Below, piece by piece: positions 25,545-52,976 of a stretch of 52,976 nt of DNA. Position 1 is the first letter of the stretch. Each line of letters begins with the position of its first letter. This DNA comes from a virus. Taxonomy: Duplodnaviria; Caudoviricetes. The notes beneath the pieces were generated by a model. It saw only the letters and a program-made list of their open reading frames with translations, ran no database searches and was not told the DNA's origin. The stretch spans positions 1-52,976 of the IMG/VR virus record IMGVR_UViG_3300032523_001138. One strand, written 5' to 3'. Position numbers and translations under genes: made by a program.

Positions 25545-25784
25545 ATGCGAGTGATTGCTGTCCGTCTCCATCGCGGCCTGAACAAGATGGACGTGCTCGT
25601 TGAGTTTTCCGGTGGGCACCTCCGCATCCCCATCTCGTGGATGACCCGCCTTCCCACCGACCTGCCTCCGGCGGACTGGTACGCGTCCGTCCGTCGCGAG
25701 GTCGAGTTACACCGTGAGCGGACCTCAGCGTCGCAAGCCTCTGTGCGAGCACTGAACAACTTTATGGCGGGTCGACTGAAATGA
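25545..25784 (+). CDS. Hypothetical protein
   Basis: ATGA overlap with the helicase start. Confidence 0.6.
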   Translation: MRVIAVRLHRGLNKMDVLVEFSGGHLRIPISWMTRLPTDLPPADWYASVRREVELHRERTSASQASVRALNNFMAGRLK

Positions 25785-28228
25785 AGATTGTCGTGGACGC
25801 CTACGCATGGCTCCCTGTGTCCGAGCTGACTCACATGCAGCGAAGCGCGCTCAAGGCAACCCTCACCGTCACGCCCCGAGCCTTCCCTGGGTTCCCGGGC
25901 CCTCCTCCGTCGCCGATCCATCTCTACGCCGAGAAGCCCGACTTCCTCGGTGTACCTCGGTCGTTCTTCATGACGCACAAGAAGGACCATCACGAGATTA
26001 TCGACATGACGACGTCGGGGCGTGCGGACCTGTGGGATGGACCATTCACTTTTACAGGTGATCTGCGACCCTCACAACAAGCTGCAATCGACAAGCTCAA
26101 AACCACCTTCAAACTACCATTCAACGGTGGTATTATAAAAGCGGCCCCTGGGTGGGGTAAAACGATATGTTCATGTGCCGCTATGGCACTACTAAATGTA
26201 CCAACGTTGGTTGTGGTTCATAAAGAGTTTTTGCTCAATCAATGGCGTGACCGCATCACACAGTTCCTCCCGGGCGCGAAGGTCGGCATCGTCCAGCAGG
26301 AACGATGTGAGTTTCGAGGCTACTCCGTTGCTATCGCAATGGTACACAGCTTGGTTGGCGACCGTGACTACGGTACAGACTTTTGGGAGTGGCCCGGACT
26401 GGTTGTTGTAGACGAGTGTTTCCCTGCCGGAACAAAGATTGCGTTGGCAGATGGGGCCTCAAAACCGATTGATCAGGTTGTCGTGGGGGACTCCGTCCTC
26501 AGTGCTTATGGCGAAGACACCGTGACGGATGTGATGCGTCGAGATATTCCGGTGGCGCGTATGCGCTTGGTTCGTTTCTCAGACGGTTCGGAGCAAGTCT
26601 GCACGCAAGACCATCCTTTCCTGTGCGTGGATCACGGCTGGACCCCTGCTCAAGACCTGATGGGCAAACTGGTGTTGACTGCGGCGGGTTGCTTCGATAC
26701 CATGTCTTCACATGGCACCAAAGTACAAGACTCCTCTGACGTGCGAGATATGCCTCAAACCGTCCTCAGTCCGAACAGGGCGTCGATATTGCTCTCAAGC
26801 CTGTACGGGGGAGTCCAAGCGGCGGTTGGGTCCTTATCCTCTGTGCGAGTGGTGTGGGAAGGCTCCGGTGAAGCGAGCCAGATCTCTTTTTTGCGGAGCT
26901 GTTTGTCGAGTGAATGCCGCAACGGTCCAAGCTCAACTGCGGGGTCCGGAGATGTCTCTTCGGGTTCAGGAGTGGCACAGGCTGAACCCGAACATCGCTT
27001 TGGAGGCTTCGGAGCGAATGCGTGCGCGCAACCCTATGCACTCGGAGACAACCCGGAAGAAGGTGTCCATAACGCTCCGTGCTCTGGGACATCGACCTCC
27101 AGTCCAAGGGGGGAACGGTCGCGGGCTGACCGTCCCGCAGCAGATTTTGCGGGAACGCTTAGGATCCGCGTGGGTGACCGAGTTTGTAATTCCAACACAC
27201 CAGCCTCGGAACAACCCTGCTCGGCTCCCGGGTCACTACAAGATCGACCTGGCTCAGCCGAATCACCTCCTTGCGGTGGAGCTGGACGGCACGAGTCACG
27301 GATCGATGCTGGGGCAGGAACGGGATCGCAAGAAAGACAACTGGCTGCACTCTTGCGGGTGGACCGTGTTTCGATTCCCGAACAAGCGGATCTTGACCGA
27401 CTTGGAATCAGTGTGCGCTCAGATACAGGGGAAGTTGCAGTCTTCAACCTCTCCGTGAAGAAGCACCCCTCCTACATTCTGCACGCTTCAAAAGCTGTGG
27501 TGCATAATTGTCATCGGCTGGGTGCAGAATCGTGGGGTAAAGCAGCTACTAAGTTCAATGCTAGATGGCGGTTGGGTGTCAGTGCAACACCACGTCGCAA
27601 AGATGGTGCGGAGCCTGTGTTCTTCCACCAGATCGGCCCGGTGATCTACCAGTCCGAAGAACAGCGTCTGAAGCCAAAGGTGCGCCGCGTGTGGACGGAC
27701 TTCAAGCTCGTTCAGACCCCGACGCTCAACCCAGAAATCATCTCGAAGAACGTCCTCCTCAAGTTCATGTGCGGCAACACCGCCCGCAACAAGCTGATCG
27801 TCGAGCAGATTGTGCTCGCTGTCGTCGCAGGGCGAAAGCCCATCGTCCTCTCTGAACGCCTCAACCATCTTGACCTGATGGAGGCTCTCTTCAAGCAGCA
27901 GTGGAAGACAGGGCAAACAGTTCCGGTCCCGTCGACGGGCTTCTACGTCGGCGGCATGAAGGAGGAGGAGCTAGAGGCCGCAGCGGAAGCGCAGGTGATA
28001 TTCGCGACTCGCCAGTTTGCCGAAGAGGGCCTCGACATCCCTGCTCTGGACACCATCTTCCTGACGGTGCCTTTCTCGGACGTAGACCAAGCCGTCGGGC
28101 GCATTCTGCGACCGTTTGACGGCAAGAAAGACCCTGTGGTGGTGGACATCATCGACCCGAAAGTCAGCCTATGTGTCAAGTCGGCGACCTACCGAGATCG
28201 GTTCTACAAAACGAAAGGGTGGGAGTGA
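25781..28228 (+). CDS. SF2 DExH helicase with intein (451 aa spliced)
   Basis: LRPSQ, APGWGKT, spliced DE|CH, SATPRRKDG, EGLDIP, QAVGRILR. Confidence 0.93.
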   Translation: MKIVVDAYAWLPVSELTHMQRSALKATLTVTPRAFPGFPGPPPSPIHLYAEKPDFLGVPRSFFMTHKKDHHEIIDMTTSGRADLWDGPFTFTGDLRPSQQAAIDKLKTTFKLPFNGGIIKAAPGWGKTICSCAAMALLNVPTLVVVHKEFLLNQWRDRITQFLPGAKVGIVQQERCEFRGYSVAIAMVHSLVGDRDYGTDFWEWPGLVVVDECFPAGTKIALADGASKPIDQVVVGDSVLSAYGEDTVTDVMRRDIPVARMRLVRFSDGSEQVCTQDHPFLCVDHGWTPAQDLMGKLVLTAAGCFDTMSSHGTKVQDSSDVRDMPQTVLSPNRASILLSSLYGGVQAAVGSLSSVRVVWEGSGEASQISFLRSCLSSECRNGPSSTAGSGDVSSGSGVAQAEPEHRFGGFGANACAQPYALGDNPEEGVHNAPCSGTSTSSPRGERSRADRPAADFAGTLRIRVGDRVCNSNTPASEQPCSAPGSLQDRPGSAESPPCGGAGRHESRIDAGAGTGSQERQLAALLRVDRVSIPEQADLDRLGISVRSDTGEVAVFNLSVKKHPSYILHASKAVVHNCHRLGAESWGKAATKFNARWRLGVSATPRRKDGAEPVFFHQIGPVIYQSEEQRLKPKVRRVWTDFKLVQTPTLNPEIISKNVLLKFMCGNTARNKLIVEQIVLAVVAGRKPIVLSERLNHLDLMEALFKQQWKTGQTVPVPSTGFYVGGMKEEELEAAAEAQVIFATRQFAEEGLDIPALDTIFLTVPFSDVDQAVGRILRPFDGKKDPVVVDIIDPKVSLCVKSATYRDRFYKTKGWE
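26675..26703 (+). promoter_or_regulatory. Sigma70-type promoter inside the intein
   Basis: TTGACT (26675-80), 17-nt spacer, TACCAT (26698-703); ATG of the nested ORF 8 nt downstream. Confidence 0.6.
26712..27458 (+). CDS. Nested +1-frame endonuclease: Zn-finger repeats plus DUF559/Vsr-like domain
   Basis: CEIC...YCSQAC, CEWC...FCGAVC, NPMHSETTRKKVS; YKIDLA...AVELDGTSH...RDRKKDNWL...GWTVFRF. Confidence 0.88.
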   Translation: MAPKYKTPLTCEICLKPSSVRTGRRYCSQACTGESKRRLGPYPLCEWCGKAPVKRARSLFCGAVCRVNAATVQAQLRGPEMSLRVQEWHRLNPNIALEASERMRARNPMHSETTRKKVSITLRALGHRPPVQGGNGRGLTVPQQILRERLGSAWVTEFVIPTHQPRNNPARLPGHYKIDLAQPNHLLAVELDGTSHGSMLGQERDRKKDNWLHSCGWTVFRFPNKRILTDLESVCAQIQGKLQSSTSP

Positions 28229-29042: not shown

Positions 29043-31331
29043 ATGGCATCGAAGAAGAAAAAGCCCGACGACGAAGTACCCGCTCCTGCGGACGCAACTT
29101 CTACGGCTGTCGACGAGGCTGTGCCCGAAACGACTGCGGACGTGATCTCAACTCGTATCAAGTCCGGCTACGACTCCAAGTCGCAGATGGGCGCGCTGCT
29201 CTCCTCAGACATCATTGCGGCGACCCTGAAAACTTACGGGAAGAAAAGTCTCATCCAAGGCTCCGAGATCAAGGCACGCAAGGTCCGCCGCATCCCGACA
29301 GGCATCTTCCCTCTTGACTACGCGCTAGAGGGTGGGTGGGCGCAAGGCGGTGTCCACACCCTGATAGGTCACAAAAGTAGCTGCAAGACCACCGTCCTCT
29401 ACAAGACTATCGGCGAGGCGCAGAAAATGTGCGCTGAGTGCTGGCAGTACATGGACCGCTGCATCTGCAAGCGCCCACGAGAGGCGGTCACCGCGTACAT
29501 CGACGTCGAAGGCGCGCTCGACTCCGCATGGGCAAGTCGCTTCTGTGACCTCGACAAAGTCGTAATCTCCGTCCCTGAGTACGCAGAGCAGACGCTGTCG
29601 ATCGGCGAGGCGCTGCTGCGCTCTGGCAAGGTCGACATGCTGATGATCGACTCCATCGCATTCCTCACCCCTGCCAAGGAGATTGAGGAAGCCATCGAGA
29701 AAGACCTGATGGGCCAGCAGGCGCGTGTGCTCGGCAAGGGCGTGCGGAAGTTCACCGCCGCGCTCAACGCCGTGATGACCGACACCGGCAAGAGACCGAC
29801 GGTCTTCTTCACCAACCAGATACGGATGAAGATCGGCGTTATGTTTGGTTGCTTCCACTATGACACGCGGGTGACTTTGGCAGACGGGGGTTCTGAGAAA
29901 ATCGGGAAGATCGTGAATCAGAAACTTCCAGTTGAAGTGCTATCGGTTGATCCGGCAACGGGTGTATGTGCTCCTGCACGGGTGACTGGTTGGCACAACA
30001 ATGGCCCCGCAGATTATTTTTTGCAGTTTGTTGTGGATGGTGTGGGCGGCAACGGACGCGCTTCCTTTGGGGTCACGCCGAACCACCACGTTTTTGTACC
30101 TGCCGGTACGGGCTGGGTAGAGCGCGAAGCAGGCACACTGTCTCCCGGAGACCTTGTCGGTCACAAGGCTTTGATCCAGTTCAGCCATGTGCAGCGACAG
30201 ATTGCCTTGGGATCCATCCTTGGGGATGGATCCCTTCGCAGAGCAGGGCGACACTATTCCCAACTACGGTTTGGTCAAGGAAAGGACCAACTAGATTATG
30301 CTCGCTGGAAAAGATCTTTGATGGGGGATTGTGTGTCTTGGGAAGGACCAGTCGGAAACAACGGTTGGGGTTTTGACTGCCGACCTTCTGCGGACATGAC
30401 CGCTGTTCTTCATGAGGCGTACTCTACCGACTCAGAATCGGGGAGGATTTTATCTAAAACAGTGCTGAACGAGCTTACTTTGTTTGGGTTAGCGGTGTGG
30501 TACATGGATGATGGTTGCTTTTCAGGTTCATACGAGCGCTGGGGGCACGGGAAAGTTGAAATCAGCGTGAAGTCGTACTCGAATGACGAGATAGCACTGC
30601 TTGCGGATTGTTTGGAACATCTGGGTGTTGGTCGGCCAACTATCACGACACAGAAATGTCTTTTGTGGTCAGGGGAACGCACGCAACATCTCCACAGACA
30701 GATCGCTAAATATATCCCTCCGTGCATGGAGCACAAACTACACCCCCGACTGCGAGGACAATTCTGCGAGCCCGAAAGCGCTCACCAAGACGACCGCTTT
30801 GTGTTGGTTCCTGTGACCGTGCAAGCGATTTACGAGAAACCTCAGTCCGGCCACCAAGATCGCTACGATCTAACTGTGGACGGGCACCATACTTACCTTG
30901 TGGATGGTGTGGCGGTTCACAACTCGCCCGAAACGGCACCCGGCGGGCTGGCCCCCGGCTTTATGTCGTGGACCGAAATGAAAATGAAGACCGGCAAGTT
31001 CAAGATGGACGACCTCGGTGAGCGCCCGCTGTACGCTGACTTTGGTTTCTCGCTCGACAAATCCAAGTCAAGCACGGCGAAAGTCGGTTACGACTACCGC
31101 ATGATGTTGTCGGACGCAGAGAGCAAGTCTCTGGGCGACTTCTACGACGAGGACTTCATACTCGATCACGCAGAGCGTAGCGGGCTCGTTACTGGTGGAG
31201 GAACGTCATGGAAGATTCTCGGGGAGACCTTCGGCAAGAAGTCGGATATCGAAAAACGGCTGGTGGCGGACCCGATCTTCAAGCGGATGTTGACGGACAT
31301 TCTGCTGAAGTCGGTCCAACAGGGAGCCTGA
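29043..31331 (+). CDS. recA: RecA/UvsX-like recombinase with intein (404 aa spliced)
   Basis: IPTGIFPLDYAL, DVEGALD, IDSIA, NQIRMKIGVMFG|SPETAPGG. Confidence 0.93.
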   Translation: MASKKKKPDDEVPAPADATSTAVDEAVPETTADVISTRIKSGYDSKSQMGALLSSDIIAATLKTYGKKSLIQGSEIKARKVRRIPTGIFPLDYALEGGWAQGGVHTLIGHKSSCKTTVLYKTIGEAQKMCAECWQYMDRCICKRPREAVTAYIDVEGALDSAWASRFCDLDKVVISVPEYAEQTLSIGEALLRSGKVDMLMIDSIAFLTPAKEIEEAIEKDLMGQQARVLGKGVRKFTAALNAVMTDTGKRPTVFFTNQIRMKIGVMFGCFHYDTRVTLADGGSEKIGKIVNQKLPVEVLSVDPATGVCAPARVTGWHNNGPADYFLQFVVDGVGGNGRASFGVTPNHHVFVPAGTGWVEREAGTLSPGDLVGHKALIQFSHVQRQIALGSILGDGSLRRAGRHYSQLRFGQGKDQLDYARWKRSLMGDCVSWEGPVGNNGWGFDCRPSADMTAVLHEAYSTDSESGRILSKTVLNELTLFGLAVWYMDDGCFSGSYERWGHGKVEISVKSYSNDEIALLADCLEHLGVGRPTITTQKCLLWSGERTQHLHRQIAKYIPPCMEHKLHPRLRGQFCEPESAHQDDRFVLVPVTVQAIYEKPQSGHQDRYDLTVDGHHTYLVDGVAVHNSPETAPGGLAPGFMSWTEMKMKTGKFKMDDLGERPLYADFGFSLDKSKSSTAKVGYDYRMMLSDAESKSLGDFYDEDFILDHAERSGLVTGGGTSWKILGETFGKKSDIEKRLVADPIFKRMLTDILLKSVQQGA
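29850..30923 (+). mobile_element. Intein in RecA, 358 aa, LAGLIDADG endonuclease
   Basis: CFHYDTRVTLADG...VAVHN|S; LGSILGDGS and LAVWYMDDG motifs. Confidence 0.95.
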
Positions 31332-35514: not shown

Positions 35515-37677
35515 GTGAATTCACCAGACACCAAGCCAGGTCGCATCGATCTCCGGCACATCCCGATTGACCTCATCCACCCCAACGCATGGAATCCCCA
35601 GGCGCAGGACGAGATCACCTTCCAGCGGCTCGTCGATGAGATTCGCGACGTGGGGTTCATTGACCCGCTCGAAGTGGTCCCGATGGACGACGGCACCTAC
35701 CGCATCATCGGCGGGGAGCACCGCTGGCAGGCTGCCAAGATCGTCGGTTTGGATGAGCTGCCCTGCGCAGTCCTCTCAGATGCCAAGTGGCAAGACGAAG
35801 ATCTGTGCTTCCCTGCCGGAACTCGTATTGAGACCCCTCAAGGTGGAGTCTCGATCGAGGTGGTGGAACCCGGTACTGAAGTTTTTGCAGCGGACGGAAC
35901 GGTGACGAGGTCAGTCGGCCTCATCGCACGAGAGTATGAAGGCGAGATGGTGGCGATCTACGCTGAGGGGCAAATCCAGCCTCTGGTTGCGACGTCCGAC
36001 CACCCTGTGTTTGTTCGACGCGGAGGCGAGATCATCATTGTCCGTGCCACCGACATTCAAGATTCTGATGCCTTGGTGGCTCCAACACTCCCGTGTCTTC
36101 TCGACGGATCTCTCCAAGGGAACCTGTCTGAAAAGGCACCATACGCATCGCCTTCAGTCCGTAGTCATGCGCTTGATGATGCCCAAGGAGACTGTAGTGT
36201 CCGAGGGTGCGCCAACTCTGACGTGTATGCTCACGGCATCTGTCGTCGCTGTTACGGGCGGTGGTACTATCGGTCCAAGATATCAAAGAGGGAGAACTTC
36301 CCCGACATTGCAAGTGGGACGCTGCTCTACAACGGCGTCGCCAGGGAGGTCTGCTCAATCGAGAGTTGCGCGAATCTTGTGCATGGAGACAAACTGTGCG
36401 GTAAGCACTATGGGGCTCGTCGACGACTCGGCTCCGAGTGGGAGCGACTCCATCGCGAAAGATTTCCCGGAGTTCCGGACACAGAGATCACACCCGATGT
36501 CGCGTGGGCGATTGGCTTCATGGTCGCCGAGGCACACGCCGGAGAGGCCGACGTGTCTGTTGTTCAGGTGGGAGCACGTCACCGTCTAGAACGTCTTCAA
36601 CGCTTCTGGGAACGACAAGGCGCACGAACCACGATCTACGATCGAGAGTCCCACTCCGAATTCGTCGCTTTCGGCATCGCAGCCAGCGAGTGGTTGTCAT
36701 CGACAATTGGGCACAGGTGTGCAGAGAAACGCTTTCCCCTCCAGATTCTTTTTCACAAAAATATGGAGATTCGTAAGCAAGCCCTCCGAGGATACTGCGA
36801 GGGGGACGGCCACAACATTCCGAAAGACACAACCAAGGAAAACTTCCACGAATCTTGGTGTGCCGCCACAACGTCAGAAGAGTTGGCAAACCAGCTGGGG
36901 TGGCTCCTCTACTCGTTGGGATACAGCTACGGTGTGGGTCATAAATCGCCGGAAGGAAACCGAAACCGCGTCTGGTCGTTGAGCTGGACTGCGTCGATTC
37001 CGGAACAGCGAGGTCCAGCAACGCAGCGCGCCAGCGGACATACTTGGTGGAAGCGTGTGAAGCACGTCGAGCGGTGGAATGATCATCTGACCGTTTACAA
37101 TCTTCAGACGGAACCAGCAGGGACTTTCGTTGCGAACGGTGTTGCGGTCCACAACTGCAAGTTCGTCACCGTTCGATTGAACGTGTTGAAGGGGAAAATG
37201 GACCCCGAAAAGTTCGCCAAGCTCTACGGGGAGATGGCGGAGAAGTACGGCGCCGAGGCTCTCCAGCAGCTGATGGGCTACGCCGACACGAAGGGTTTCC
37301 AGAAGATCGTCGGCGACGTGAAGCGCGGGCTGAAGAAGTCGCTGCCCAAGGAGCTGCAGGACGAGTTCGATGAGAAGGCGAAGGAGGCCAAGACGATCGA
37401 AGACCTCTCCAACATCCTCCAGCACCTGTTCGCCAAGCACGGGGACACGGTCAATCTGTCGTTCATGGTATTCTCGTTCGGGAAGCAAGAGCACGTCTAT
37501 TGTCAGATGAATCGCAATACCAAGAAGGCGCTCGACAAGGTGCTGGCCTATTGCAAGCACACCAATGAGGACATCAATGACTTTCTCGGACCCATCATCG
37601 AGGAGGCTGGCAAGCAGGCGCTGAGTGCTCTGGACAAATCAAAAGTGGCTGCTGCGAAAGTATCGCTAGACTCTTGA
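35515..37677 (+). CDS. ParB/Srx N-terminal domain protein with intein (270 aa spliced)
   Basis: IHPNAWNP, GFIDPL, IIGGEHRWQAA. Confidence 0.88.
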   Translation: MNSPDTKPGRIDLRHIPIDLIHPNAWNPQAQDEITFQRLVDEIRDVGFIDPLEVVPMDDGTYRIIGGEHRWQAAKIVGLDELPCAVLSDAKWQDEDLCFPAGTRIETPQGGVSIEVVEPGTEVFAADGTVTRSVGLIAREYEGEMVAIYAEGQIQPLVATSDHPVFVRRGGEIIIVRATDIQDSDALVAPTLPCLLDGSLQGNLSEKAPYASPSVRSHALDDAQGDCSVRGCANSDVYAHGICRRCYGRWYYRSKISKRENFPDIASGTLLYNGVAREVCSIESCANLVHGDKLCGKHYGARRRLGSEWERLHRERFPGVPDTEITPDVAWAIGFMVAEAHAGEADVSVVQVGARHRLERLQRFWERQGARTTIYDRESHSEFVAFGIAASEWLSSTIGHRCAEKRFPLQILFHKNMEIRKQALRGYCEGDGHNIPKDTTKENFHESWCAATTSEELANQLGWLLYSLGYSYGVGHKSPEGNRNRVWSLSWTASIPEQRGPATQRASGHTWWKRVKHVERWNDHLTVYNLQTEPAGTFVANGVAVHNCKFVTVRLNVLKGKMDPEKFAKLYGEMAEKYGAEALQQLMGYADTKGFQKIVGDVKRGLKKSLPKELQDEFDEKAKEAKTIEDLSNILQHLFAKHGDTVNLSFMVFSFGKQEHVYCQMNRNTKKALDKVLAYCKHTNEDINDFLGPIIEEAGKQALSALDKSKVAAAKVSLDS
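35806..37155 (+). mobile_element. Intein in ParB-like protein, 450 aa, LAGLIDADG plus two Zn-finger repeats
   Basis: CFPAGT...TSDHPV...VYNL...VAVHN|C; IGFMVAEAH and LRGYCEGDG motifs. Confidence 0.93.
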
Positions 37678-44716: not shown

Positions 44717-47335
44717 TTGCGCCAGTACACCGTCGTCACCGACGAGCACTTGCTCGCCGGTATTGCTCGCGAAATTGAGAGTGCCGACGTCATCGGGATC
44801 GACCTTGAGACAGCGAAGATCGGCGGAGGCGGCAGCTTCGACCCCCTGACGGGCCGTGTGCGCCTCTGCTCGGTGAACACAGGGCAGGCTCTCTACATCA
44901 TCGACCTCTACAAGACGCAGACGCTGGGGCCAGTTGTGGACGCTTTCAGGCGCACAAAGGGGGTGGTCGTCGGCCAGAACATGAAGTTCGACCAGAAGTG
45001 GCTGCTCTGGCACTTCGACCTTGAGCTGGTGAAGCTGTTCGACACCTTCCGCGCGTCGAGCATCATCTACGCGGGCCTCCCTGGGTTGAAGCACGACCTG
45101 TGGAGCCTCTACAAGCGCGAGCTGGGCGAAGCAGCGGCTGTCGAAGACCTCGGCGGCTCCGATTGGGACGGGACACTGACGCAGAAGCAGCTCGACTACG
45201 CAGCGGACGACATCGACAAGCTCCCGCGCCTCCGCGACGTGCTCAAGCCAAAGATCGTTCAGGCAGGGCTGGTGAAGATCGCTCAGCTGGAGTTCAACGC
45301 GGTCCTCCCCGAAGCCTGCATGGAGCTGAACGGCTTCTTCCTCGACAAAGAAATGTGGCTCACACGAACGGCGTCAGACAGGGCGCAGATGGAACGGCTG
45401 CGAGCGAGTTTGCTCGCCAAGCTTCCGAACCCGTCGAACCAGCTGGGGCTCTTCGGGAGTGCGCCCTTCAATCTCGAATCCCCCGACCAGATTCTCACGT
45501 CGCTCTGCATGTTGGGCGTGAAGCAGAAGTGGAAAGACCCTGAAACAGGGCTGACGAAGACGGTTCCCATCATGGACACCAAGGAGATGACGCTGGCGAT
45601 GGAGGCCGACCGCTGGCCCATCCTCAAGGAGTTCATCGAGTACCGAGGGTACGCGCAGGCGGTGAAGTCATTCGGCGAGGAGTACCTGAAACACATCCAC
45701 GCGACGTCGGGACGCGTCCACTCGTCGTACTTCCCGTTCACGGACACGGGACGGTATGCTAATCGTTCGCCAAACCTACAACAAGTCCCTCGCGGGAGCG
45801 CGTTTCGGGATTGCTTTAGGGCCGCTGAAGGTCGCTCTCTGGCCATCGCGGACTGGAGCAACATCGAGATGCGGATCGTTGCTGAGGTCTCCAAAGACCC
45901 CGTCCTCATCAAGGTATTCCAAGACGACCGCGATGCCCACTACGCGACGGCTTCCCTCGTCACTGGTAAACCTGAGAGTGAAGTGATAAAAGCCGAAAGA
46001 CAGCAAGCAAAGCCAGTGAACTTCGGGTTCTGCATCGCAGAAGGTCAGCGCGTGTTGACACAGGAAGGGTTGGTCCCGATCGAGTCGGTTCGAGATTGGC
46101 ACGTCGTATGGGATGGAGTAGAATGGGTGACCCACGACGGTCTGATCTACCGAGGGCTGCAGCCTGTTCAGACCCACGATGGCCTGACCACTACGCCCGA
46201 CCACGAGGTCTTCACTGATGACGGACACCGGATTTCAATGCGGGAAGCAGCATCCCCGCTTCGTCCCAGACGCCTTGCTGTTGGCGCAATTGGCATTGAT
46301 CCCGTTGGGTACATTGCGTTTGACCGGCAAGGTCGAACAGCGGCTCCGCAGCCGGAGGTACGTCGAGGCGACCTGCGACTGCTGCAACCAAGCCCGCTGG
46401 ATTCTGGTCGACAACATACGGGCGCGGAAGACGACCAACTGCACCTGCCACGGAAAGTACAACGATCCCCGATCCGAGACCTTGGGCGAACGCTTCGACT
46501 CTATGGTGCAGCGTTGTCGTCGGGATACGCACGTCTCGTCGCACAACTACAAGGGACGAGGGATTCAGGTCTTGTTCCTGTCGAGGGAGCAGTTCATTCG
46601 TTGGGCTCTGGAGACCTACCCGGACTCCGACTTCAAAGGGCTGGACTTCGACCGAACGAACAACGACGGGCACTACGAGCCATCGAACCTTCGGCTGGTG
46701 ACGCGCTCGGAAAACTTGAAGAACCGCTCCCGCTCGCCCACGTCTACGACCTCCTGAACGCGGGCCCCCGGCATCGCTTCACAGTGGAGGGGAAGGTCGT
46801 GAGCAACTGCTACGGGATGCAAGCGGCTCGCATGGTCCTCTACGCGAAGCAGGGCTATGGCGTGAACATGACGGAGGCGACGGCGCGAACCTTCCGCAGA
46901 AAATTCTTCGAGGCATACGAGGGGATTGCCAGCTGGCACCGAGGGGCACTGGACTCAGGGAAGCGTCAACGTGAGACCCGCACCGTCTGGGGACGCAGAC
47001 GCATCATCAAGGATGAGAAGGCGCACAACGAGTTCTTAAATTCCCCAATTCAGGGCACAGGCGCTGACGGCCTCAAGGTCGCCATCCGCAACGTCTACGA
47101 CCGTCTGAAAAAGCTCGCGGGCCGGACGCCCCTTCTCGGCAAGGGGGCGAAGTGCGCGCCGGTCCATATGGTCCACGACGAGATCATCGTCGAACACGAC
47201 GATGATCCTGAGCTGGAAATTCACGTTCGGCGGGAGCTGCACGATGGGATGATCGAGGGCATTGCCCCAATGCTCCCATCCGTTCCGACCCGTGCAGAGG
47301 TAGCGGGAGGGAAAAGCTGGGGAAGCAAAACCTGA
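44717..47335 (+). CDS. polA: Family A DNA polymerase with 3'-5' exonuclease and intein (613 aa spliced)
   Basis: DLET, YAADD, TGR...PNLQQVP, DWSNIEMR, KPVNFGF|CYG, IQGTGAD, VHDE. Confidence 0.95.
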   Translation: MRQYTVVTDEHLLAGIAREIESADVIGIDLETAKIGGGGSFDPLTGRVRLCSVNTGQALYIIDLYKTQTLGPVVDAFRRTKGVVVGQNMKFDQKWLLWHFDLELVKLFDTFRASSIIYAGLPGLKHDLWSLYKRELGEAAAVEDLGGSDWDGTLTQKQLDYAADDIDKLPRLRDVLKPKIVQAGLVKIAQLEFNAVLPEACMELNGFFLDKEMWLTRTASDRAQMERLRASLLAKLPNPSNQLGLFGSAPFNLESPDQILTSLCMLGVKQKWKDPETGLTKTVPIMDTKEMTLAMEADRWPILKEFIEYRGYAQAVKSFGEEYLKHIHATSGRVHSSYFPFTDTGRYANRSPNLQQVPRGSAFRDCFRAAEGRSLAIADWSNIEMRIVAEVSKDPVLIKVFQDDRDAHYATASLVTGKPESEVIKAERQQAKPVNFGFCIAEGQRVLTQEGLVPIESVRDWHVVWDGVEWVTHDGLIYRGLQPVQTHDGLTTTPDHEVFTDDGHRISMREAASPLRPRRLAVGAIGIDPVGYIAFDRQGRTAAPQPEVRRGDLRLLQPSPLDSGRQHTGAEDDQLHLPRKVQRSPIRDLGRTLRLYGAALSSGYARLVAQLQGTRDSGLVPVEGAVHSLGSGDLPGLRLQRAGLRPNEQRRALRAIEPSAGDALGKLEEPLPLAHVYDLLNAGPRHRFTVEGKVVSNCYGMQAARMVLYAKQGYGVNMTEATARTFRRKFFEAYEGIASWHRGALDSGKRQRETRTVWGRRRIIKDEKAHNEFLNSPIQGTGADGLKVAIRNVYDRLKKLAGRTPLLGKGAKCAPVHMVHDEIIVEHDDDPELEIHVRRELHDGMIEGIAPMLPSVPTRAEVAGGKSWGSKT
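46031..46807 (+). mobile_element. Intein in PolA motif B, 259 aa, HNH endonuclease in +1 frame
   Basis: CIAEGQRV...TPDHEV...VYDLLNAGPRHRF...VVSN|C. Confidence 0.93.
46218..46757 (+). CDS. Nested +1-frame HNH endonuclease
   Basis: CDCC...NCTC, SMVQRC, YKGRGI, DRTNNDGHYEPSNLRLVTRSENLKN; GAGGT SD 8 nt before the ATG. Confidence 0.88.
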   Translation: MTDTGFQCGKQHPRFVPDALLLAQLALIPLGTLRLTGKVEQRLRSRRYVEATCDCCNQARWILVDNIRARKTTNCTCHGKYNDPRSETLGERFDSMVQRCRRDTHVSSHNYKGRGIQVLFLSREQFIRWALETYPDSDFKGLDFDRTNNDGHYEPSNLRLVTRSENLKNRSRSPTSTTS

Positions 47336-48147: not shown

Positions 48148-51100
48148 ATGCTTGTCACCCGCGAAGGCCGCACGATCAGCGTCCGCACTGCCTCGGAGCT
48201 GGACGAGTCTTTGAAGAAGGAGATGTCGACGCTCTCCCCAGAGGAGCGCGAGGCCCTGCGAATTATTCTGCAGGACTTCCACCATCAGCCTCTGACCGGA
48301 CCCGCAGCGACGCAGTTCGCACAGCCCAACCTGCTCGCGGCTCTTTCGGCTGCCGAGTACAAGACTCCGCCAGTCGACATGCGGACCTTCATCAAAGACC
48401 CTGAGTTCCTCGGGAACACTTGCGACTCCCTCTACCCGAAGTTCCTCGACGACCTCGTGGACCTGTTCTCGGGCGGCTACAACGAGTGTGTGTTCTGCCT
48501 GCACCCAGACACGCCTGTGCCGTTGCTCGATGGGACGGCACCAACCATCAAAGCTCTCGCAGAGCGGTTCGCTGTCGACCAGACTCCATTCTGGGTCTAC
48601 GGGGTCGAGGAGTCTGGGAAAGTTGTTCCTGCTCAAGCCGAGAACCCCCGCAAGACAGGGGAGGACGACTACTACGAGGTCACACTGGACGACGGCTCTG
48701 TGTTCACCGGGAACGCGCGCCATCAGATGATCCTGCGTGACGGGTCGAAGAGAATGATCCGCGACATGCGGGCTGGCGACAGTCTGATGCCTTTCGACAC
48801 GAAGGTATCCTCCCGAGGCGAGGGCCGCAGAATTCATGGCTACGAGATGGTTCGTACGCTCGACACCGAAAACTTCCGATACACGCACGCGCTCGTCGAG
48901 GAGGACAAGGCAGGCCCCATCGACTCAAAGGCAGTCACGGTCCACCACCGGAACTTCAAAAAGCTCGACAACACCCCAAAAAACCTAGAGCGCTTGACTT
49001 GGCGAGCGCACACCGCCCTCCACCACCAACACCGCATGGAGTATCTCGAAGCCAACCCAGTCGTTCACACTGCCCTGCGGGATCGCGCGACCAAGAATGC
49101 GACTGACCCAGAGTCGCCGCTCCGCAAAGGGCATCGCGAATTCATGCGCTCCGCCAAGGGACGGGCACTATCTCGAAAAAATCTGGCACAAGCCGAGGTG
49201 CCAACCGATGCGCTTCGCGCTCGCGGTGCGAAAGGCTCTCGCTCTCGGTGGTGTGGTGAGGGGAGTGAAAATCAGAAGTCCGCAGCATCCGATCGACTGA
49301 GCGCCCGAAATAGAGACGGCAACAGCGTCAGCGCTCTTCGGGCGCGTTGGAAAGACCCCGTCCAGAGGGAAGCAGCTCGTCTACGCATGGCTGCTCGCAA
49401 CAAGGCCAACGCAGGGAAAGCGCTGCGTTCAGATATCACCGCAGAAGCCGTAAAAGCCGCAGTCACTGAAGGTGCTTCAACTCTGAAGGCGGCCTCAGTG
49501 GCTTTGGGCTGCTCCACAACCCGAGTCAGACGCGCTTTGGTGGACGCTGGGATTGATCCTAAAACCGTCTTCGCGCGTCGACGAAATCATCACGTCGTCA
49601 GCATCGAGAAGGTCGGCCACGGTCCGGTCTACTGCATGACCGTTCCTCGCACGACGAACTTTGCGATCTGCACAGGTCGCTCCGATGGAAGCCACTCCCG
49701 AAGCGGCGTATTCTCGTCGAATACAGGCGCGATCGGCATCGGCAAATGCCTAGTCGGTGAAACGGAGATCTACGACACACAGACCGGACGTCGCCGCACG
49801 GTCGACGAGCCCGGTGTGCTCGCAGTGCCGTCCAAAACCGACAGCGGTCTTCTTTCCAGCATGCCTGCAGTGTCGATTCCGTCGGGTGTGAAGCCGTGTG
49901 TGCGCGTCACGCTGTCTGCGGGACAATCCGTAGTGCCATCGACTGACCACGCTATCTTCACGGCACGGGGCTGGGTCGAAGCGGCCAGCCTGACGACCGA
50001 CGATCTTGTTGCAACGCCACGAAGCCTTCCTGCGCCGATCACCAGCAAGTCCTTCAGTGACAACGAGGTGAAACTCATTGCCTACCTCTTGGCTGACGGT
50101 GGCATGACGACGCTGTCGACGACGTTCACAAACGGAAAGCGAGTTTTGCTCGACGAATTCAAGGCGCTGGTGGAGTCGGAAGGTGACTGCTCGACCTACC
50201 AAAACTGGCACAAGGACTCAGCACCTGGCATCAAAGAGAAGACTTCACTGAGCAAAGCCACGGAGTTTTCCGTTACGGGTCTCGCGCACAAGGTTCGCGG
50301 CTGGGGGATCAACAGCCACTCGCGGGACAAGCGAGTGCCTTCGGACTTCTACGGTCTTCCTGCGCGCCAGATCGCGCTCTTCCTTTCTCGCTTCTGGTCT
50401 TGCGATGGCTACATCAACCCCGGCAAGTGCCCTCAGATCGACGTGACCCTCGCATCACAAGGCTTGGTCGACGACCTACGCCACATGATGCTTCGCCTTG
50501 GAATCCCGTCCCGCAAGAGCTTCAAATGGGCGACCATAAAACAACAGGACGGCTCCAAGAAGAAGTACCCCGCGTGGCGTCTCCTTGTGACAGGAGCACC
50601 TGCAGTACGAAACTTCATCGAGACGGTGGGGCCTGTGCTCGGTAAGGAAGCCTTCTGCGCCGAAGCCATTGCATCCTGCGACCGAGTCAAAGCCCCCAAC
50701 CCGAACGTCGACTTGGTGCCCATCCGCATCCATGAGCTGAGAGAGATTCGTAAGGAGCTTGGGTGGTCAGAACGCAAGATGCGGAGTCGGTTCTCCTTGG
50801 CGGCAGGTTCGTGCATGAGCCGCTCACGCTTCGAGCGACTTTGCGCGGAGACCGGCTACAAGGGGCGCTACGCTTGGTTAGCCTCTTCCGATCTGGTGTG
50901 GGACTTAGTGGAGCGCGTGGAGCCCGTGGGAGATCGGGAGGTTTACGACCTCTCAGTGCCGGGAACCCACAACTTTGTGGCCAACCAGATCGTCGTTCAC
51001 AACACCTTCGTGTGTACGATTGGAATTGCGAGAGTCCTGTATGAAATATCATGCCTGAAAGACCCTCACAAGACGTTCGGCCTTGCCAAAGACACGAACA

Positions 51101-52976
51101 TCACGCTCGCTTGCTTCAGCGGCGACACCGAGTTTTACGACGGCTTCACTGGCCAACGTCACACGATGGCGCAAGCCGCAGCCTTATCCCTGCCCCACGG
51201 GGTTGTAGGTTTTGGAGGGCGCTCCCTGACGGCGTCGAGATCGCTAGGTGCGCGAAAAACAGGAACCAAAGAAGTCTTCGCCCTCAAGACATCAACCGGA
51301 AGGACCATCCGAGCGTCTGCAGAGCACAAGTTTTTATCCTTGACGCGTGGGCCGGTAACTTTGGGTCAGCTCGCGGTCGGAGAAGCCGTCGCCGTATCAG
51401 CATTCACCCCTGAGCCAACGGTGCCAGACACGACACTATCTGACGCCGAGATACGCTTGCTTGCGTATCTCATCGCTGAAGGCAACACGATGACTCCGCA
51501 CGTCGCCTTTGGAAACACCGATGAGCGTCTGGTGGCTGAGTTCGTACAGGACGCCAAGGCGATTGGTTGCTTCGACGTCACTGTGACGAGGCACCGCCCG
51601 AAAAACAAAAAGACCTACTGCACAGTGCGAGAGCGATCTGGGAAGCAAGGCCAGCGGAATGTTCGCTATGCGCTGTGGGACTTATCCTCCCGCTTCGGGC
51701 TGGCGGGGACGAATTCGCAGGCCAAGCGGATACCTCCTGAGATTTTCCGATTGCCGAACGCGAAGATCGCTTTGTTTCTGAACCGGCTGTTTGCAGGTGA
51801 CGGCTCCTGTTACTTCGCAGAGCGACCGCCCGAGAAGAGTGCGACGCAAAACTGGCGCACCTACCAGCTACGCTATGCCACAACGTCACCCCTATTGGCT
51901 AGGGACGTGGCGGACGCCCTGACTCGCTTCGGCATCTACGCATCCATCCGGAGTCAGCCGGTGAAGGCCAGCCGCCCTCACACCGTCTACCACGTCGACT
52001 TTTCGCGGAAGGAGTACGTCCACAAGTTCATCTCTGCGATTGGAATTTTTGGTCGGGAGTACCAGTACGACCGGGCAGCGTGGCGGGGGTTCTCGGTCAC
52101 TTCGGGAGACATCTGCTGGGACGAGGTGGTGTCAATCGTCCCGAGCGGCATAGAAGATGTCTACTGTGTCGTCGATGTGGAGCCGAGTCCTTGGTTCGTC
52201 GCGCAGCAGTTCATCGTACACAACTGCTTTTCGGTCAACGAAGAACTTGCTACAAAAGTTGTGTTCGAGAACATCAAGACGAAGATCACGGCGTCGCCGT
52301 ACTTCATGCGGAACTTCCCCTTCTCGGCGACGAAGAAGGAGCTGCGGTTCCCTCACAACGTGTGGGTCGCGCCGCGTGCAACCACTGACACGTCTGCCCT
52401 CGGCTTGAACGTCATCAGCGCCTTCATGGACGAAGGTAACTTTCTTCCGAAGCGCGGGAAGTACAGCGCAGCCGCAGGGGTCGTCGACCACGCCGACCTC
52501 ATCTACTCCTCGCTCAAGCGACGTATGAAGTCTCGCTTCGAGAAGGCAGGGAAGCTCCCTGGCATCCTCTTCATCGCGTCATCAAAGACGACCCACGAAG
52601 ACTTCGTCAGCCGTCGCCTGAAGGAAGCGCGCGACGACCCCACGCTGTTCGTGCGCGACTACGCGCTCTGGGAGATCAAGCCGGAGGACTACTACTCGGC
52701 GGAGAAGTTTCAGGTGCTCGTCGGCAACGAGACGATCCCATCCAAGATACTCGACCCCGGCGAAGCAGACCGTCTCCGACCGGGTCTCCCCGACGGCACG
52801 CTGATCATCAACGTCCCCGAGGACTTCCGCATCGATTTTGAGCGCGACCTTGAGGGGTGTTTCACGGGGGACACGAAGGTATCTCTGCTGGACGGACGCG
52901 AAGTCGCGCTTGGTGACTTGAAGCCCGACGACGTTTTCTGGGTCTACTCCTTCGGCCCCGACGGACGGATGTATCC
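48148..52976 (+). CDS. terL: Terminase large subunit, 3'-partial, with at least four inteins (absent from the ORF track)
   Basis: Translated by hand with no stop to the window end; spliced ECVF|TGAIGIGK|TF Walker A, LGLNVISAFMDE Walker B, FIASS motif III. Confidence 0.9.
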   Translation, partial: MLVTREGRTISVRTASELDESLKKEMSTLSPEEREALRIILQDFHHQPLTGPAATQFAQPNLLAALSAAEYKTPPVDMRTFIKDPEFLGNTCDSLYPKFLDDLVDLFSGGYNECVFCLHPDTPVPLLDGTAPTIKALAERFAVDQTPFWVYGVEESGKVVPAQAENPRKTGEDDYYEVTLDDGSVFTGNARHQMILRDGSKRMIRDMRAGDSLMPFDTKVSSRGEGRRIHGYEMVRTLDTENFRYTHALVEEDKAGPIDSKAVTVHHRNFKKLDNTPKNLERLTWRAHTALHHQHRMEYLEANPVVHTALRDRATKNATDPESPLRKGHREFMRSAKGRALSRKNLAQAEVPTDALRARGAKGSRSRWCGEGSENQKSAASDRLSARNRDGNSVSALRARWKDPVQREAARLRMAARNKANAGKALRSDITAEAVKAAVTEGASTLKAASVALGCSTTRVRRALVDAGIDPKTVFARRRNHHVVSIEKVGHGPVYCMTVPRTTNFAICTGRSDGSHSRSGVFSSNTGAIGIGKCLVGETEIYDTQTGRRRTVDEPGVLAVPSKTDSGLLSSMPAVSIPSGVKPCVRVTLSAGQSVVPSTDHAIFTARGWVEAASLTTDDLVATPRSLPAPITSKSFSDNEVKLIAYLLADGGMTTLSTTFTNGKRVLLDEFKALVESEGDCSTYQNWHKDSAPGIKEKTSLSKATEFSVTGLAHKVRGWGINSHSRDKRVPSDFYGLPARQIALFLSRFWSCDGYINPGKCPQIDVTLASQGLVDDLRHMMLRLGIPSRKSFKWATIKQQDGSKKKYPAWRLLVTGAPAVRNFIETVGPVLGKEAFCAEAIASCDRVKAPNPNVDLVPIRIHELREIRKELGWSERKMRSRFSLAAGSCMSRSRFERLCAETGYKGRYAWLASSDLVWDLVERVEPVGDREVYDLSVPGTHNFVANQIVVHNTFVCTIGIARVLYEISCLKDPHKTFGLAKDTNITLACFSGDTEFYDGFTGQRHTMAQAAALSLPHGVVGFGGRSLTASRSLGARKTGTKEVFALKTSTGRTIRASAEHKFLSLTRGPVTLGQLAVGEAVAVSAFTPEPTVPDTTLSDAEIRLLAYLIAEGNTMTPHVAFGNTDERLVAEFVQDAKAIGCFDVTVTRHRPKNKKTYCTVRERSGKQGQRNVRYALWDLSSRFGLAGTNSQAKRIPPEIFRLPNAKIALFLNRLFAGDGSCYFAERPPEKSATQNWRTYQLRYATTSPLLARDVADALTRFGIYASIRSQPVKASRPHTVYHVDFSRKEYVHKFISAIGIFGREYQYDRAAWRGFSVTSGDICWDEVVSIVPSGIEDVYCVVDVEPSPWFVAQQFIVHNCFSVNEELATKVVFENIKTKITASPYFMRNFPFSATKKELRFPHNVWVAPRATTDTSALGLNVISAFMDEGNFLPKRGKYSAAAGVVDHADLIYSSLKRRMKSRFEKAGKLPGILFIASSKTTHEDFVSRRLKEARDDPTLFVRDYALWEIKPEDYYSAEKFQVLVGNETIPSKILDPGEADRLRPGLPDGTLIINVPEDFRIDFERDLEGCFTGDTKVSLLDGREVALGDLKPDDVFWVYSFGPDGRMY
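48496..49722 (+). mobile_element. TerL intein 1, 409 aa, in-frame HNH endonuclease
   Basis: CLHPDT...VHHRNFKKLDNTPKNL...VYCMTV...FSSN|T. Confidence 0.9.
49747..51003 (+). mobile_element. TerL intein 2, 419 aa, LAGLIDADG endonuclease
   Basis: CLVGET...IAYLLADGG...FLSRFWSCDG...IVVHN|T. Confidence 0.93.
51112..52224 (+). mobile_element. TerL intein 3, 371 aa, LAGLIDADG endonuclease
   Basis: CFSGDT...LAYLIAEGN...FLNRLFAGDG...FIVHN|C. Confidence 0.92.
52858..52976 (+). mobile_element. TerL intein 4, N-terminal part only
   Basis: CFTGDTKVSLLDG...FWVYS block A, similar to the start of intein 1. Confidence 0.85.

Follow-up and report, generated by a model that had tools for sequence, protein, structure and literature searches.

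A family A DNA polymerase intein in a viral contig carries a conserved HNH-like gene in its +1 reading frame

The window analysed here is the IMG/VR virus contig IMGVR_UViG_3300032523_001138, taken over its whole length of 52,976 bases and estimated to be 32% complete. It contains a family A DNA polymerase (PolA) gene that is interrupted by an intein, and the intein in turn contains a second gene in another reading frame. Based on the open reading frame (ORF) list and Pfam, the PolA precursor is an ORF of 872 codons at 44717..47335 on the + strand, the strand of all features of this locus described below. Pfam detects DNA_pol_A in two stretches (1.1e-59) together with a 3'-5' exonuclease domain (DNA_pol_A_exo1, 2.2e-19). 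The first DNA_pol_A stretch ends at residue 449 (hidden Markov model position 228), exactly at the insertion point of the intein, and homology resumes after it. The intein, delimited from the sequence and an alignment of relatives, comprises 259 codons (46031..46807) between the NFGF and CYG of PolA, flanks that we take to be polymerase motif B. Nested within it, at 46218..46757, is an ORF of 179 codons plus TGA in frame +1 of PolA, whose predicted product is a homologue of HNH-like (beta-beta-alpha-metal) endonucleases. Both this architecture and the selection specific to each of the two frames are documented below.

In frame 0, the intein begins with Cys1 (TGC, 46031-46033), directly after NFGF, and ends with Asn259 (AAC, 46805-46807), which is followed by TGC-TAC-GGG (CYG). 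The +1 residue after the intein is therefore Cys; in relatives, the final Asn is followed by C, S or T. The N-terminal splicing (Hint) domain spans 46031..46290, as delimited by the alignment and by the ratio of nonsynonymous to synonymous substitution rates (dN/dS, omega). It contains block A (CIAEGQRVLT), WDGVEW and block B (TTPDH), in which T-P-D-H, with its His codon at 46202-46204, fits T-x-x-H. Frame-0 conservation of this domain extends to about residue 86, and Cys1, T55 and H58 are invariant in 38/38 aligned N-terminal domains of related inteins. The C-terminal splicing blocks F and G occupy 46742..46807 and read VYDLLNAGPRHRFTVEGKVVSN, after which Cys follows, and the stop codon of the nested ORF lies inside block F. 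Judged by these motifs, 46031-46807 appears to be built like a class-1 intein and to sit in polymerase motif B. Frame 0 is unbroken over 44717-47335 and the host gene is not split in two ORFs; this continuity rules out a split intein or fractured gene at PolA.

Two properties of the splicing frame weigh against this assignment. First, the penultimate residue of the intein is Ser, not His, and relatives have S, H, A or L at this position; inteins without a penultimate His are known. Second, Hint membership is read from motifs and weak profile matches, with Hint_2 detected in 12 of the 38 N-terminal domains and below the cut-off in all of them. A profile built from the 38 domains matches seven PDB sequences, the best being 7qil (E 0.0023). 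One of the seven is named 'DnaE intein', and the other six are DNA polymerase III alpha constructs, which we presume to be DnaE inteins as well. The profile support for a Hint fold is specific, though weak. A single-sequence AF2 model of the frame-0 intein has a pLDDT of 33.5 throughout, Hint parts included, and is uninformative on disorder of the interior. Pfam returned no family at E <= 1 for the 259-residue frame-0 intein, in agreement with an earlier sequence-only reading of this DNA, which had described the splicing-frame interior as lacking a recognisable domain. A sigma-70-like promoter match (TTGGCA, 17 nt, TAGAAT; 10/12) lies at 46096-46124, within the Hint-coding WDGVEW and ~94 nt upstream of the nested ATG; one such site was found versus 0.2 expected in shuffles.

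The nested ORF starts at ATG 46218, just after block B. The Glu-Val codons next to block B contain a Shine-Dalgarno (SD)-like GAGGT (46205..46209), separated from this ATG by 8 nt. The stop codon, TGA at 46755-46757, takes its TG from the end of a Leu codon (CTG) and its A from the start of an Asn codon (AAC) in block F (VYDLLN). The sequence-only reading had placed the start, the SD-like motif and the stop at these same positions, and its coordinates all hold. The ~24 codons after the ATG are conserved in both frames: in this N-terminal overlap (46218..46290), frame 0 encodes the Hint segment ...ISMREAASPLRPRRLAV (...REAAS...RLA), and frame +1 encodes MTDTGFQCGKQHPRF (...HPR...), in which P13 is nearly invariant across the HNH family. 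In the interior (46291..46741), frame +1 encodes the predicted nuclease, and frame 0 is a stop-free linker without a recognisable domain. As a measure of chance openness, the +1 frame is open over 179 codons in 1/520 sliding windows placed on the ordinary genes of the contig.

Selection on the two frames was compared by threading codons on pairwise HNH alignments between the window and 17 relatives, over the interior. For the same nucleotides, identity is 51-69% in the HNH frame versus 22-44% in the host (splicing) frame. The nucleotide differences also track the HNH codon phase, being fewest at position 2 and most frequent at position 3 (27%, 22% and 50% at positions 1, 2 and 3 for the relative L087). 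Nei-Gojobori (NG86) estimates were attempted for the 66 pairs of the 12 closest loci, of which 38 were computable, the HNH-frame dS being saturated in the other 28. Over the computable pairs, median omega values are 0.19 (HNH frame) and 1.65 (splicing frame), with the HNH estimate lower in 38/38. In the control region, intein codons 0-60, frame-0 dN is 0.19-0.47 with saturated dS (undefined in 9/12 pairs and 1.3-5.0 in three), and the +1 frame contains stops. The Hint codons are constrained in frame 0 and the interior in frame +1; therefore, selection switches frame inside the intein. Frame-specific dN/dS had been proposed in the sequence-only reading as a check on the nested gene, with an HNH frame neither translated nor conserved as grounds for abandoning it; the frame-specific dN/dS and the conservation of the HNH frame bear the nested gene out.

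The openness of frame 0 across the interior was examined separately. When the HNH codons of the window were permuted synonymously, frame 0 was stop-free in 2.2% of trials (P = 0.022), with 3.2 stops expected; when codons were drawn from window usage, it was stop-free in 0.08% (P = 0.0008), with 7.25 stops expected. Across 54 nested loci with GC contents of 36-68%, stop avoidance reaches P < 0.05 in 53, and 7.2 stops are expected on average (L125, with <100 codons, was excluded from this test). These loci had been chosen for an open host frame, which counts against taking the figure at face value; the unbiased one is that 32/35 closest loci are nested. Among close relatives, a host frame whose openness is rarely reached by synonymous choice alone is the rule. 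Collectively, these results indicate that the +1 frame is under purifying selection, while the interior of frame 0 is merely kept stop-free.

The offset could be imagined as an artefact or a recent accident, in which two compensating indels moved a canonical in-frame HNH domain out of frame. Canonical in-frame HNH inteins do exist, including one in the terminase ORF of the window and one at the locus L136. However, contigs from two other samples of the same study (X2 and X3) and from a different study (X5) cover both ends of the nested ORF with 0 indels, and their base differences from the window amount to one in X3, one in X5 and none in X2. In addition, the same +1 offset is repeated in dozens of independent contigs down to ~30% identity, the nested ORF is equipped with an SD-like motif, an ATG and a stop of its own, and codon choice keeps frame 0 open. 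Sequencing indels, which the sequence-only reading had named as a possible refutation, are ruled out by these contigs and by the layout in 32/35 closest loci, and we regard an accident of this kind as scarcely credible. The same contigs and those of the metatranscriptome run X19, all under 95% alike over parts of this stretch, show no intein-less allele and no intein-skipping joint, a point against an actively homing element, although in contigs such an absence means little. A blastn search of GenBank phages with 45600-47335 gave no match.

The start and stop signals of the family are embedded in splicing blocks: the ORF, and in relatives also its SD-like motif and ATG, overlap blocks B and F. 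In 18/42 relatives, the Tyr and Asp/Gly codons of the Hint motif together make up an ATG that precedes the block-B His codon by 26 nt, and 16 of the 18 have an upstream SD-like motif. The window and two relatives (L008 and L012) differ in that their ATG comes 13-16 nt after the block-B His codon and is preceded by GAGG. Among 52 distinct loci, 37 have the stop codon within block F, 2-6 codons from its beginning; a further 12 have it past block F but ahead of the splice junction, and three upstream of block F.

The later start of the window ORF, compared with most relatives, counts against an intact gene. At 46179..46187, 3 nt off the common HNH start of relatives, the +1 frame reads ATG-GCC-TGA, and its TGA (46185-46187) closes the frame, leaving it open over no more than 10 codons (46188-46217) ahead of the nested ATG. 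The window ORF could thus be a weakened copy. Taken to its end, this would make it a decaying remnant that has lost its normal start, is unexpressed and is becoming a mini-intein, within a family whose architecture is real. About 14 N-terminal residues are missing as a result of the TGA, and the failure to find an intein-less allele in the contigs examined also fits decay. Nevertheless, all family-invariant columns are intact and the conserved part is full length, a relative that is 93% identical to the +1 product (P0001) likewise has 179 residues, the replacement start (ATG and GAGG) is common to L008 and L012, and frame 0 is still stop-free against expectation. Decay of this copy is therefore judged very unlikely.

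Internal initiation is not the only conceivable way to read the +1 frame. The nuclease could instead be a fusion produced by programmed +1 ribosomal frameshifting from the polymerase/Hint frame. The two ORFs overlap on the same strand, and in some relatives (L111 and L098) the +1 frame is open far upstream of a good start, as such a fusion would have it. In the window, however, the shift would be confined to 46188-46217, and both this ORF and those of most relatives have an ATG accompanied by an SD-like motif. RNA folding around the nested start (46170-46260) gave z 0.48, that is, no stable structure; no search was made for slippery sites. Frameshifting is judged exceedingly improbable. A metatranscriptome contig from freshwater sediment (270 nt, ~94% identical, gapless) covers 46109-46378, which includes block B and the nested start, and its difference 46180 T>C abolishes the ATG at 46179. 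At <95% likeness, it is no evidence for transcription of this phage or for initiation at 46218, and in this respect it lends the internal start no help.

The relatives of the +1 product place it among HNH-like proteins. In PHROG, it matches phrog_374, 'HNH endonuclease' (1.6e-23), and another family annotated HNH endonuclease (5.4e-17). A tblastn search with the product retrieves 664 GenBank phage records, and a large protein collection contains 76 proteins with 93% to 40% identity to it. The alignment of 45 relatives has 16 invariant columns, which comprise C53, C56, C75, C77, R99-C100, R114-G115 and a core of the form D-R-x-[DN]-N-x-G-x-Y-x3-N...N. The four cysteines C53, C56, C75 and C77 (46374..46448), invariant in the 45 sequences, form a presumed zinc ribbon; in the PDB, a profile of the alignment finds only a GATA-type zinc finger, at E 0.022, and, at E 0.25, a cytochrome. 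Residues 142-169 (LDFDRTNNDGHYEPSNLRLVTRSENLKN; 46641..46724) make up the predicted beta-beta-alpha core, with D145, R146, N149, G151, Y153, N157 and N169. With the 45-sequence alignment as input, AF2 modelled the product at a pLDDT of 87.8, and strands 142-146 and 158-162 and helix 163-168 are at ~90. The top hits of the BFVD structure search, which gave 85 matches at E <= 1e-3, bear the name HNH endonuclease. D145 is present in 165/165 loci, N157 in 164/165 and N169 in 149/156 aligned loci. In the HNH sites of I-HmuI and Cas9, these positions hold the metal ligands and the structural Asn.

In contrast, several results weigh against a working nuclease. The Pfam match to HNH_3 is weak (E 0.024, 14.7 bits versus a cut-off of 24.8) and involves only the second half of the model. 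The best VIA match, the HNH restriction enzyme PacI (3m7k), is middling (Z 6.5, rmsd 2.8, 84 residues), and Gme HNH (4h9d) follows at Z 2.8. A Foldseek search of the PDB with the +1 model found nothing at E <= 1e-3, its top rows, TUT1 and Hsp70, being noise. Moreover, Arg146 occupies the general-base His position of HNH in 45/45 aligned sequences and in 165/165 loci, the latter count being biased because one search pattern contained 'DR'; the equivalence of Arg146 with the first His, at the end of strand 1, is assumed from motif spacing, not from structural superposition. Because of Arg146, the HNH_3 match below the cut-off, the lack of a Foldseek match in the PDB and a PacI match at only Z 6.5, the product is no more than a putative nuclease. 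The family may comprise variant nucleases, nickases or no nucleases at all.

These observations could also mean that the nested protein is conserved and translated and yet is not a stand-alone nuclease, serving instead as a sequence-specific DNA-binding factor, a nickase acting via another residue (for instance Y153 or H105), or a helper that brings in a different nuclease or a recombination function. Such a role would agree with the uniform replacement of the first His by R146, the partial HNH_3 match and the lack of a significant PDB match by either sequence or Foldseek, and the N-terminal four-cysteine motif resembles a DNA-binding zinc finger. It is harder to reconcile with the conservation of D145, N157 and N169, with a beta-beta-alpha core predicted at high confidence, and with an HNH restriction enzyme as the closest structural match. 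The family also behaves like a homing element, being free-standing in many phages and present in inteins at several insertion sites. We rate this alternative as unlikely, and retain a homing endonuclease as the probable function of the +1 product.

Scans of viral and metagenome contigs yielded 163 related loci. In 32 of the 35 closest (E <= 7e-36), the HNH ORF is nested in an intein-bearing same-strand ORF, the three others being L094, L114 and L116; L103, cut by the contig end, was counted among the 32 after manual reading. Over the whole set, it is nested in 59/163 loci, and in addition in Streptococcus phage PhiSdyV1524 and Salmonella phage vB_SenS-Ent1. A nested entry was required to have a longer same-strand ORF with intein motifs, and 62 entries, including the window and the two GenBank phages, qualified (55 non-redundant). 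A rule that asked only for another frame covering the match flagged 73/166 entries, of which the intein-motif requirement dropped 11, leaving the 62. The dropped entries (e.g. L079, L130, L136, L155, L162, L163, L006 and L116) are chance open frames in GC-rich DNA or short pieces.

The hosts are mostly polymerases. Among 54 host ORFs, 46 are family A polymerases, two are helicases and six lack a Pfam match; three of these six (L018, L020 and L025) have non-polymerase junctions. The junctions of homologous inteins in motif B or close to it are of at least five types (NFG[FL]/[CST]YG, AK[AGPT]/CNFG, AELA/CGY and others; the slash marks the junction), and unrelated sites are also used. PhiSdyV1524 carries a homologous intein (CIAEGELVLT...TPDH...NAGPHHRFTV...HN/C) with a 195-codon +1 ORF. 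In vB_SenS-Ent1 (L001, NC_019539; 2300-3043), a nested HNH homologue of 247 codons lies in the other non-zero frame of the DNA polymerase intein, and GenBank annotates this intein as 'encoding splicing domains' only. L060, L061 and L172 share the frame offset of Ent1 and represent a related lineage. Free-standing HNH relatives at 55-60% identity, without an overlapping long ORF, are found at L094 and, in Micavibrio metagenome-assembled genomes, at L168 and L169; other free-standing relatives have C-terminal extensions (L116, P0057 and P0066). The occurrence of homologous units at several sites and in several host proteins may reflect horizontal spread as a unit; no empty allele was seen in the contigs examined. 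Judged by this distribution, the PolA intein with its nested HNH ORF appears to be an old, mobile and widespread family, located mostly in family A polymerases.

Some of the related loci show further arrangements. At L114 (about 1-1925), a polymerase-like ORF stops a few codons past the motif-B lysine/asparagine (…GKIGN…), and is succeeded, still in that frame, by an HNH homologue (45% identity) that has no Hint flanks; a restriction-enzyme-like gene comes next. The arrangement may reflect either gene truncation or the insertion of an endonuclease gene independently of any intein. In L005, the ORF 1-4149 contains a second, unrelated polymerase intein (CVHGDTLIRC...SHN/S) with a 183-codon +1 ORF (1010-1561) that has a canonical HNH motif (HHID...N...H), apparently a further independent case of the out-of-frame layout. 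The polymerases of L101 and L167 have an extra upstream intein with an in-frame HNH_3/NUMOD4-type endonuclease; therefore, in-frame and out-of-frame HNH inteins coexist in one gene.

The window contains a second intein with an out-of-frame gene. The ResIII helicase ORF (25781-28228, + strand) carries an intein (VVVDE/CFPAGT...AVVHN/C) in which a 248-codon ORF is nested in frame +1 (26712-27458, + strand). Its product matches DUF559 (2e-13) and also REase_MTES_1575, has several CxxC pairs and has no match in PHROG. About 30 codons separate block B (TQDH) from the start of the ORF, whose stop codon falls within block F (VFNLSVKK). Inteins are in general unusually abundant on this contig: a DnaB-like helicase (20111-22660), RecA (29043-31331) and a ParB-N protein (35515-37677) each have an in-frame LAGLIDADG intein, and in a terminase-like ORF (48148-52974) the intein-like inserts number at least three or four, one of which includes a canonical HNH motif in frame.

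Based on the helicase and PolA inteins, the sequence-only reading had proposed that the same architecture arose twice, independently and convergently, in one genome, and that this marks a general route by which inteins gain endonucleases. The factual basis stands, since two nuclease families (HNH-like and DUF559) are out of frame in two inteins of this genome, both in frame +1 and both with a stop in block F. An origin of the PolA architecture in this genome does not stand. The family is widespread (59/163 loci, with family A polymerases as 46/54 hosts); therefore, the PolA layout was inherited or acquired as a unit. Nor do the shared offset and stop position speak for convergence: the +1 offset is a family trait, the lineage of L001, L060, L061 and L172 uses the other frame, and a stop in or after block F is to be expected where the +1 frame leaves the region that is kept open. 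As for the general route, three observations favour the view that free-standing endonuclease genes have joined inteins more than once: the other-frame lineage, the free-standing relatives and the +1 HNH ORF of L005. The relatives at 55-60% identity likewise fit the idea that mini-inteins are invaded by such genes. What is lost from this part of the claim is novelty, the route having already been proposed in print.

Taken together, the best explanation of the locus, and one that we consider probable, is a motif-B intein of class-1 type whose homing endonuclease is a separate +1 gene in the central region. Ribosomes translating polA would read through in frame 0 and produce a precursor with an N-terminal Hint half, a linker of ~150 residues and a C-terminal Hint half, the linker being stop-free and otherwise unconstrained. 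Splicing of this precursor would restore the polymerase. A minority of ribosomes would begin at ATG 46218, guided by the GAGG in the Hint-coding sequence, and yield a 179-residue protein with a zinc ribbon and an HNH-like core. This protein would cut or nick intein-less polymerase alleles at NFGF/CYG, resulting in homing of the whole unit. Internal initiation, protein splicing, nuclease activity and its target are all deduced here from sequence.

A wider reading is that the out-of-frame state is a stable, selected end state, not a short-lived step between an invaded mini-intein and an in-frame endonuclease domain; we put this forward tentatively and think it somewhat less probable than its converse. 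The entangled Hint/HNH unit is found with nucleases that have diverged to ~30% identity, at several polymerase motif-B sites and in helicases. The SD-like motif, start and stop lie within conserved splicing blocks; therefore, neither partner could be deleted or decay without harm to the other. If this reading is true, nuclease synthesis would be tied to the polymerase mRNA, many inteins listed as 'mini' or 'endonuclease-less', among them the annotated Jerseyvirus polymerase intein, would in fact function as active homing elements, and natural sequence entanglement would prolong the life cycle of a selfish element.

The locus matters in several ways. The endonuclease families known to occur out of frame in inteins are few, and an HNH-like nuclease now joins them; the PolA layout, which is rare and recently described, is here found to be widespread. 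The layout appears common and old in phage family A polymerases, including those of cultivable Salmonella and Streptococcus phages, in which the translation question is directly testable. Scans of the intein frame by length or domain misclassify such elements, as the Ent1 annotation illustrates. The close free-standing relatives offer concrete material for the model of intein origin in which splicing came first and the endonuclease invaded later, and, in having start and stop signals that overlap splicing blocks, the locus exemplifies natural gene entanglement.

Preprints of 2025-26, which cite Gorbalenya 1998, have already described intein endonucleases that are out of frame. In a literature search that left aside the preprints' supplementary tables and Gorbalenya 1998, no report of an out-of-frame HNH inside an intein was found. 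The preprint of Gosselin et al. describes antisense LAGLIDADG, antisense VSR-like and 'frame 3' endonuclease VII-like genes inside inteins, lists HNH, supplementary tables aside, only as in-frame, and proposes an invasion model. As in their 'frame 3' case, the endonuclease gene of the PolA intein is on the same strand, in another frame and between the splicing blocks, the splicing frame is open without a recognisable fold, and the proposed origin is a free-standing gene invading a mini-intein. The difference is that the nuclease there is endonuclease VII-like, whereas that of the PolA intein is HNH-like and in +1. The free-standing route to inteins had been proposed by Dassa 2009, as cited, and in the Gosselin et al. 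preprint.

A cyanobacterial dnaX intein with a LAGLIDADG endonuclease in frame +2 was described by Phillips, DeSimone and Gogarten (bioRxiv 10.64898/2026.09.14.751524), who credit Gorbalenya 1998 with the first proposal. The dnaX and PolA inteins have in common an overlapping ORF with a putative SD, an omega that is low in the endonuclease frame and raised in that of the intein, an intein-frame interior modelled at low confidence (as is the rest of the frame-0 model of the PolA intein), and secondary invasion as the favoured origin. In contrast, theirs is a LAGLIDADG endonuclease with another offset in a bacterial chromosomal gene, while here the product is HNH-like and the hosts are phage polymerases.

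Arsenault et al. (Genes 2025, PMC11855218) described the ShiLan domain, an HNH insertion that lies out of frame in DNA methylases of mycobacteriophages. Similar to the PolA intein, it hides an HNH with zinc fingers in another frame, the insertion adds no stop to the host gene, and the stop codon is at the very end of the insertion. However, ShiLan has no detectable splicing domains and hence is not an intein, whereas clear Hint blocks flank the ORF here; and no ribosome-binding site was found for it and leaderless GTG initiation was proposed, whereas an SD-like motif and an ATG are present here. Fractured genes, in which split inteins have a free-standing endonuclease gene between their halves (Dassa et al., NAR 2009, PMC2677866), share the same evolutionary model with the PolA intein. 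There, the host gene is in two ORFs and trans-splicing joins the products; here, frame 0 is continuous, which suggests a contiguous, cis-splicing intein.

Finally, the PolA case resembles the in-frame HNH inteins of the canonical kind (Dalgaard et al. 1997, cited by Gosselin et al.) in combining an intein and an HNH-type nuclease in a phage replication or packaging gene. In those inteins, the nuclease forms one domain of the intein polypeptide, with the canonical His in place, whereas in the PolA intein it would be a separate translation product, with Arg at that position.

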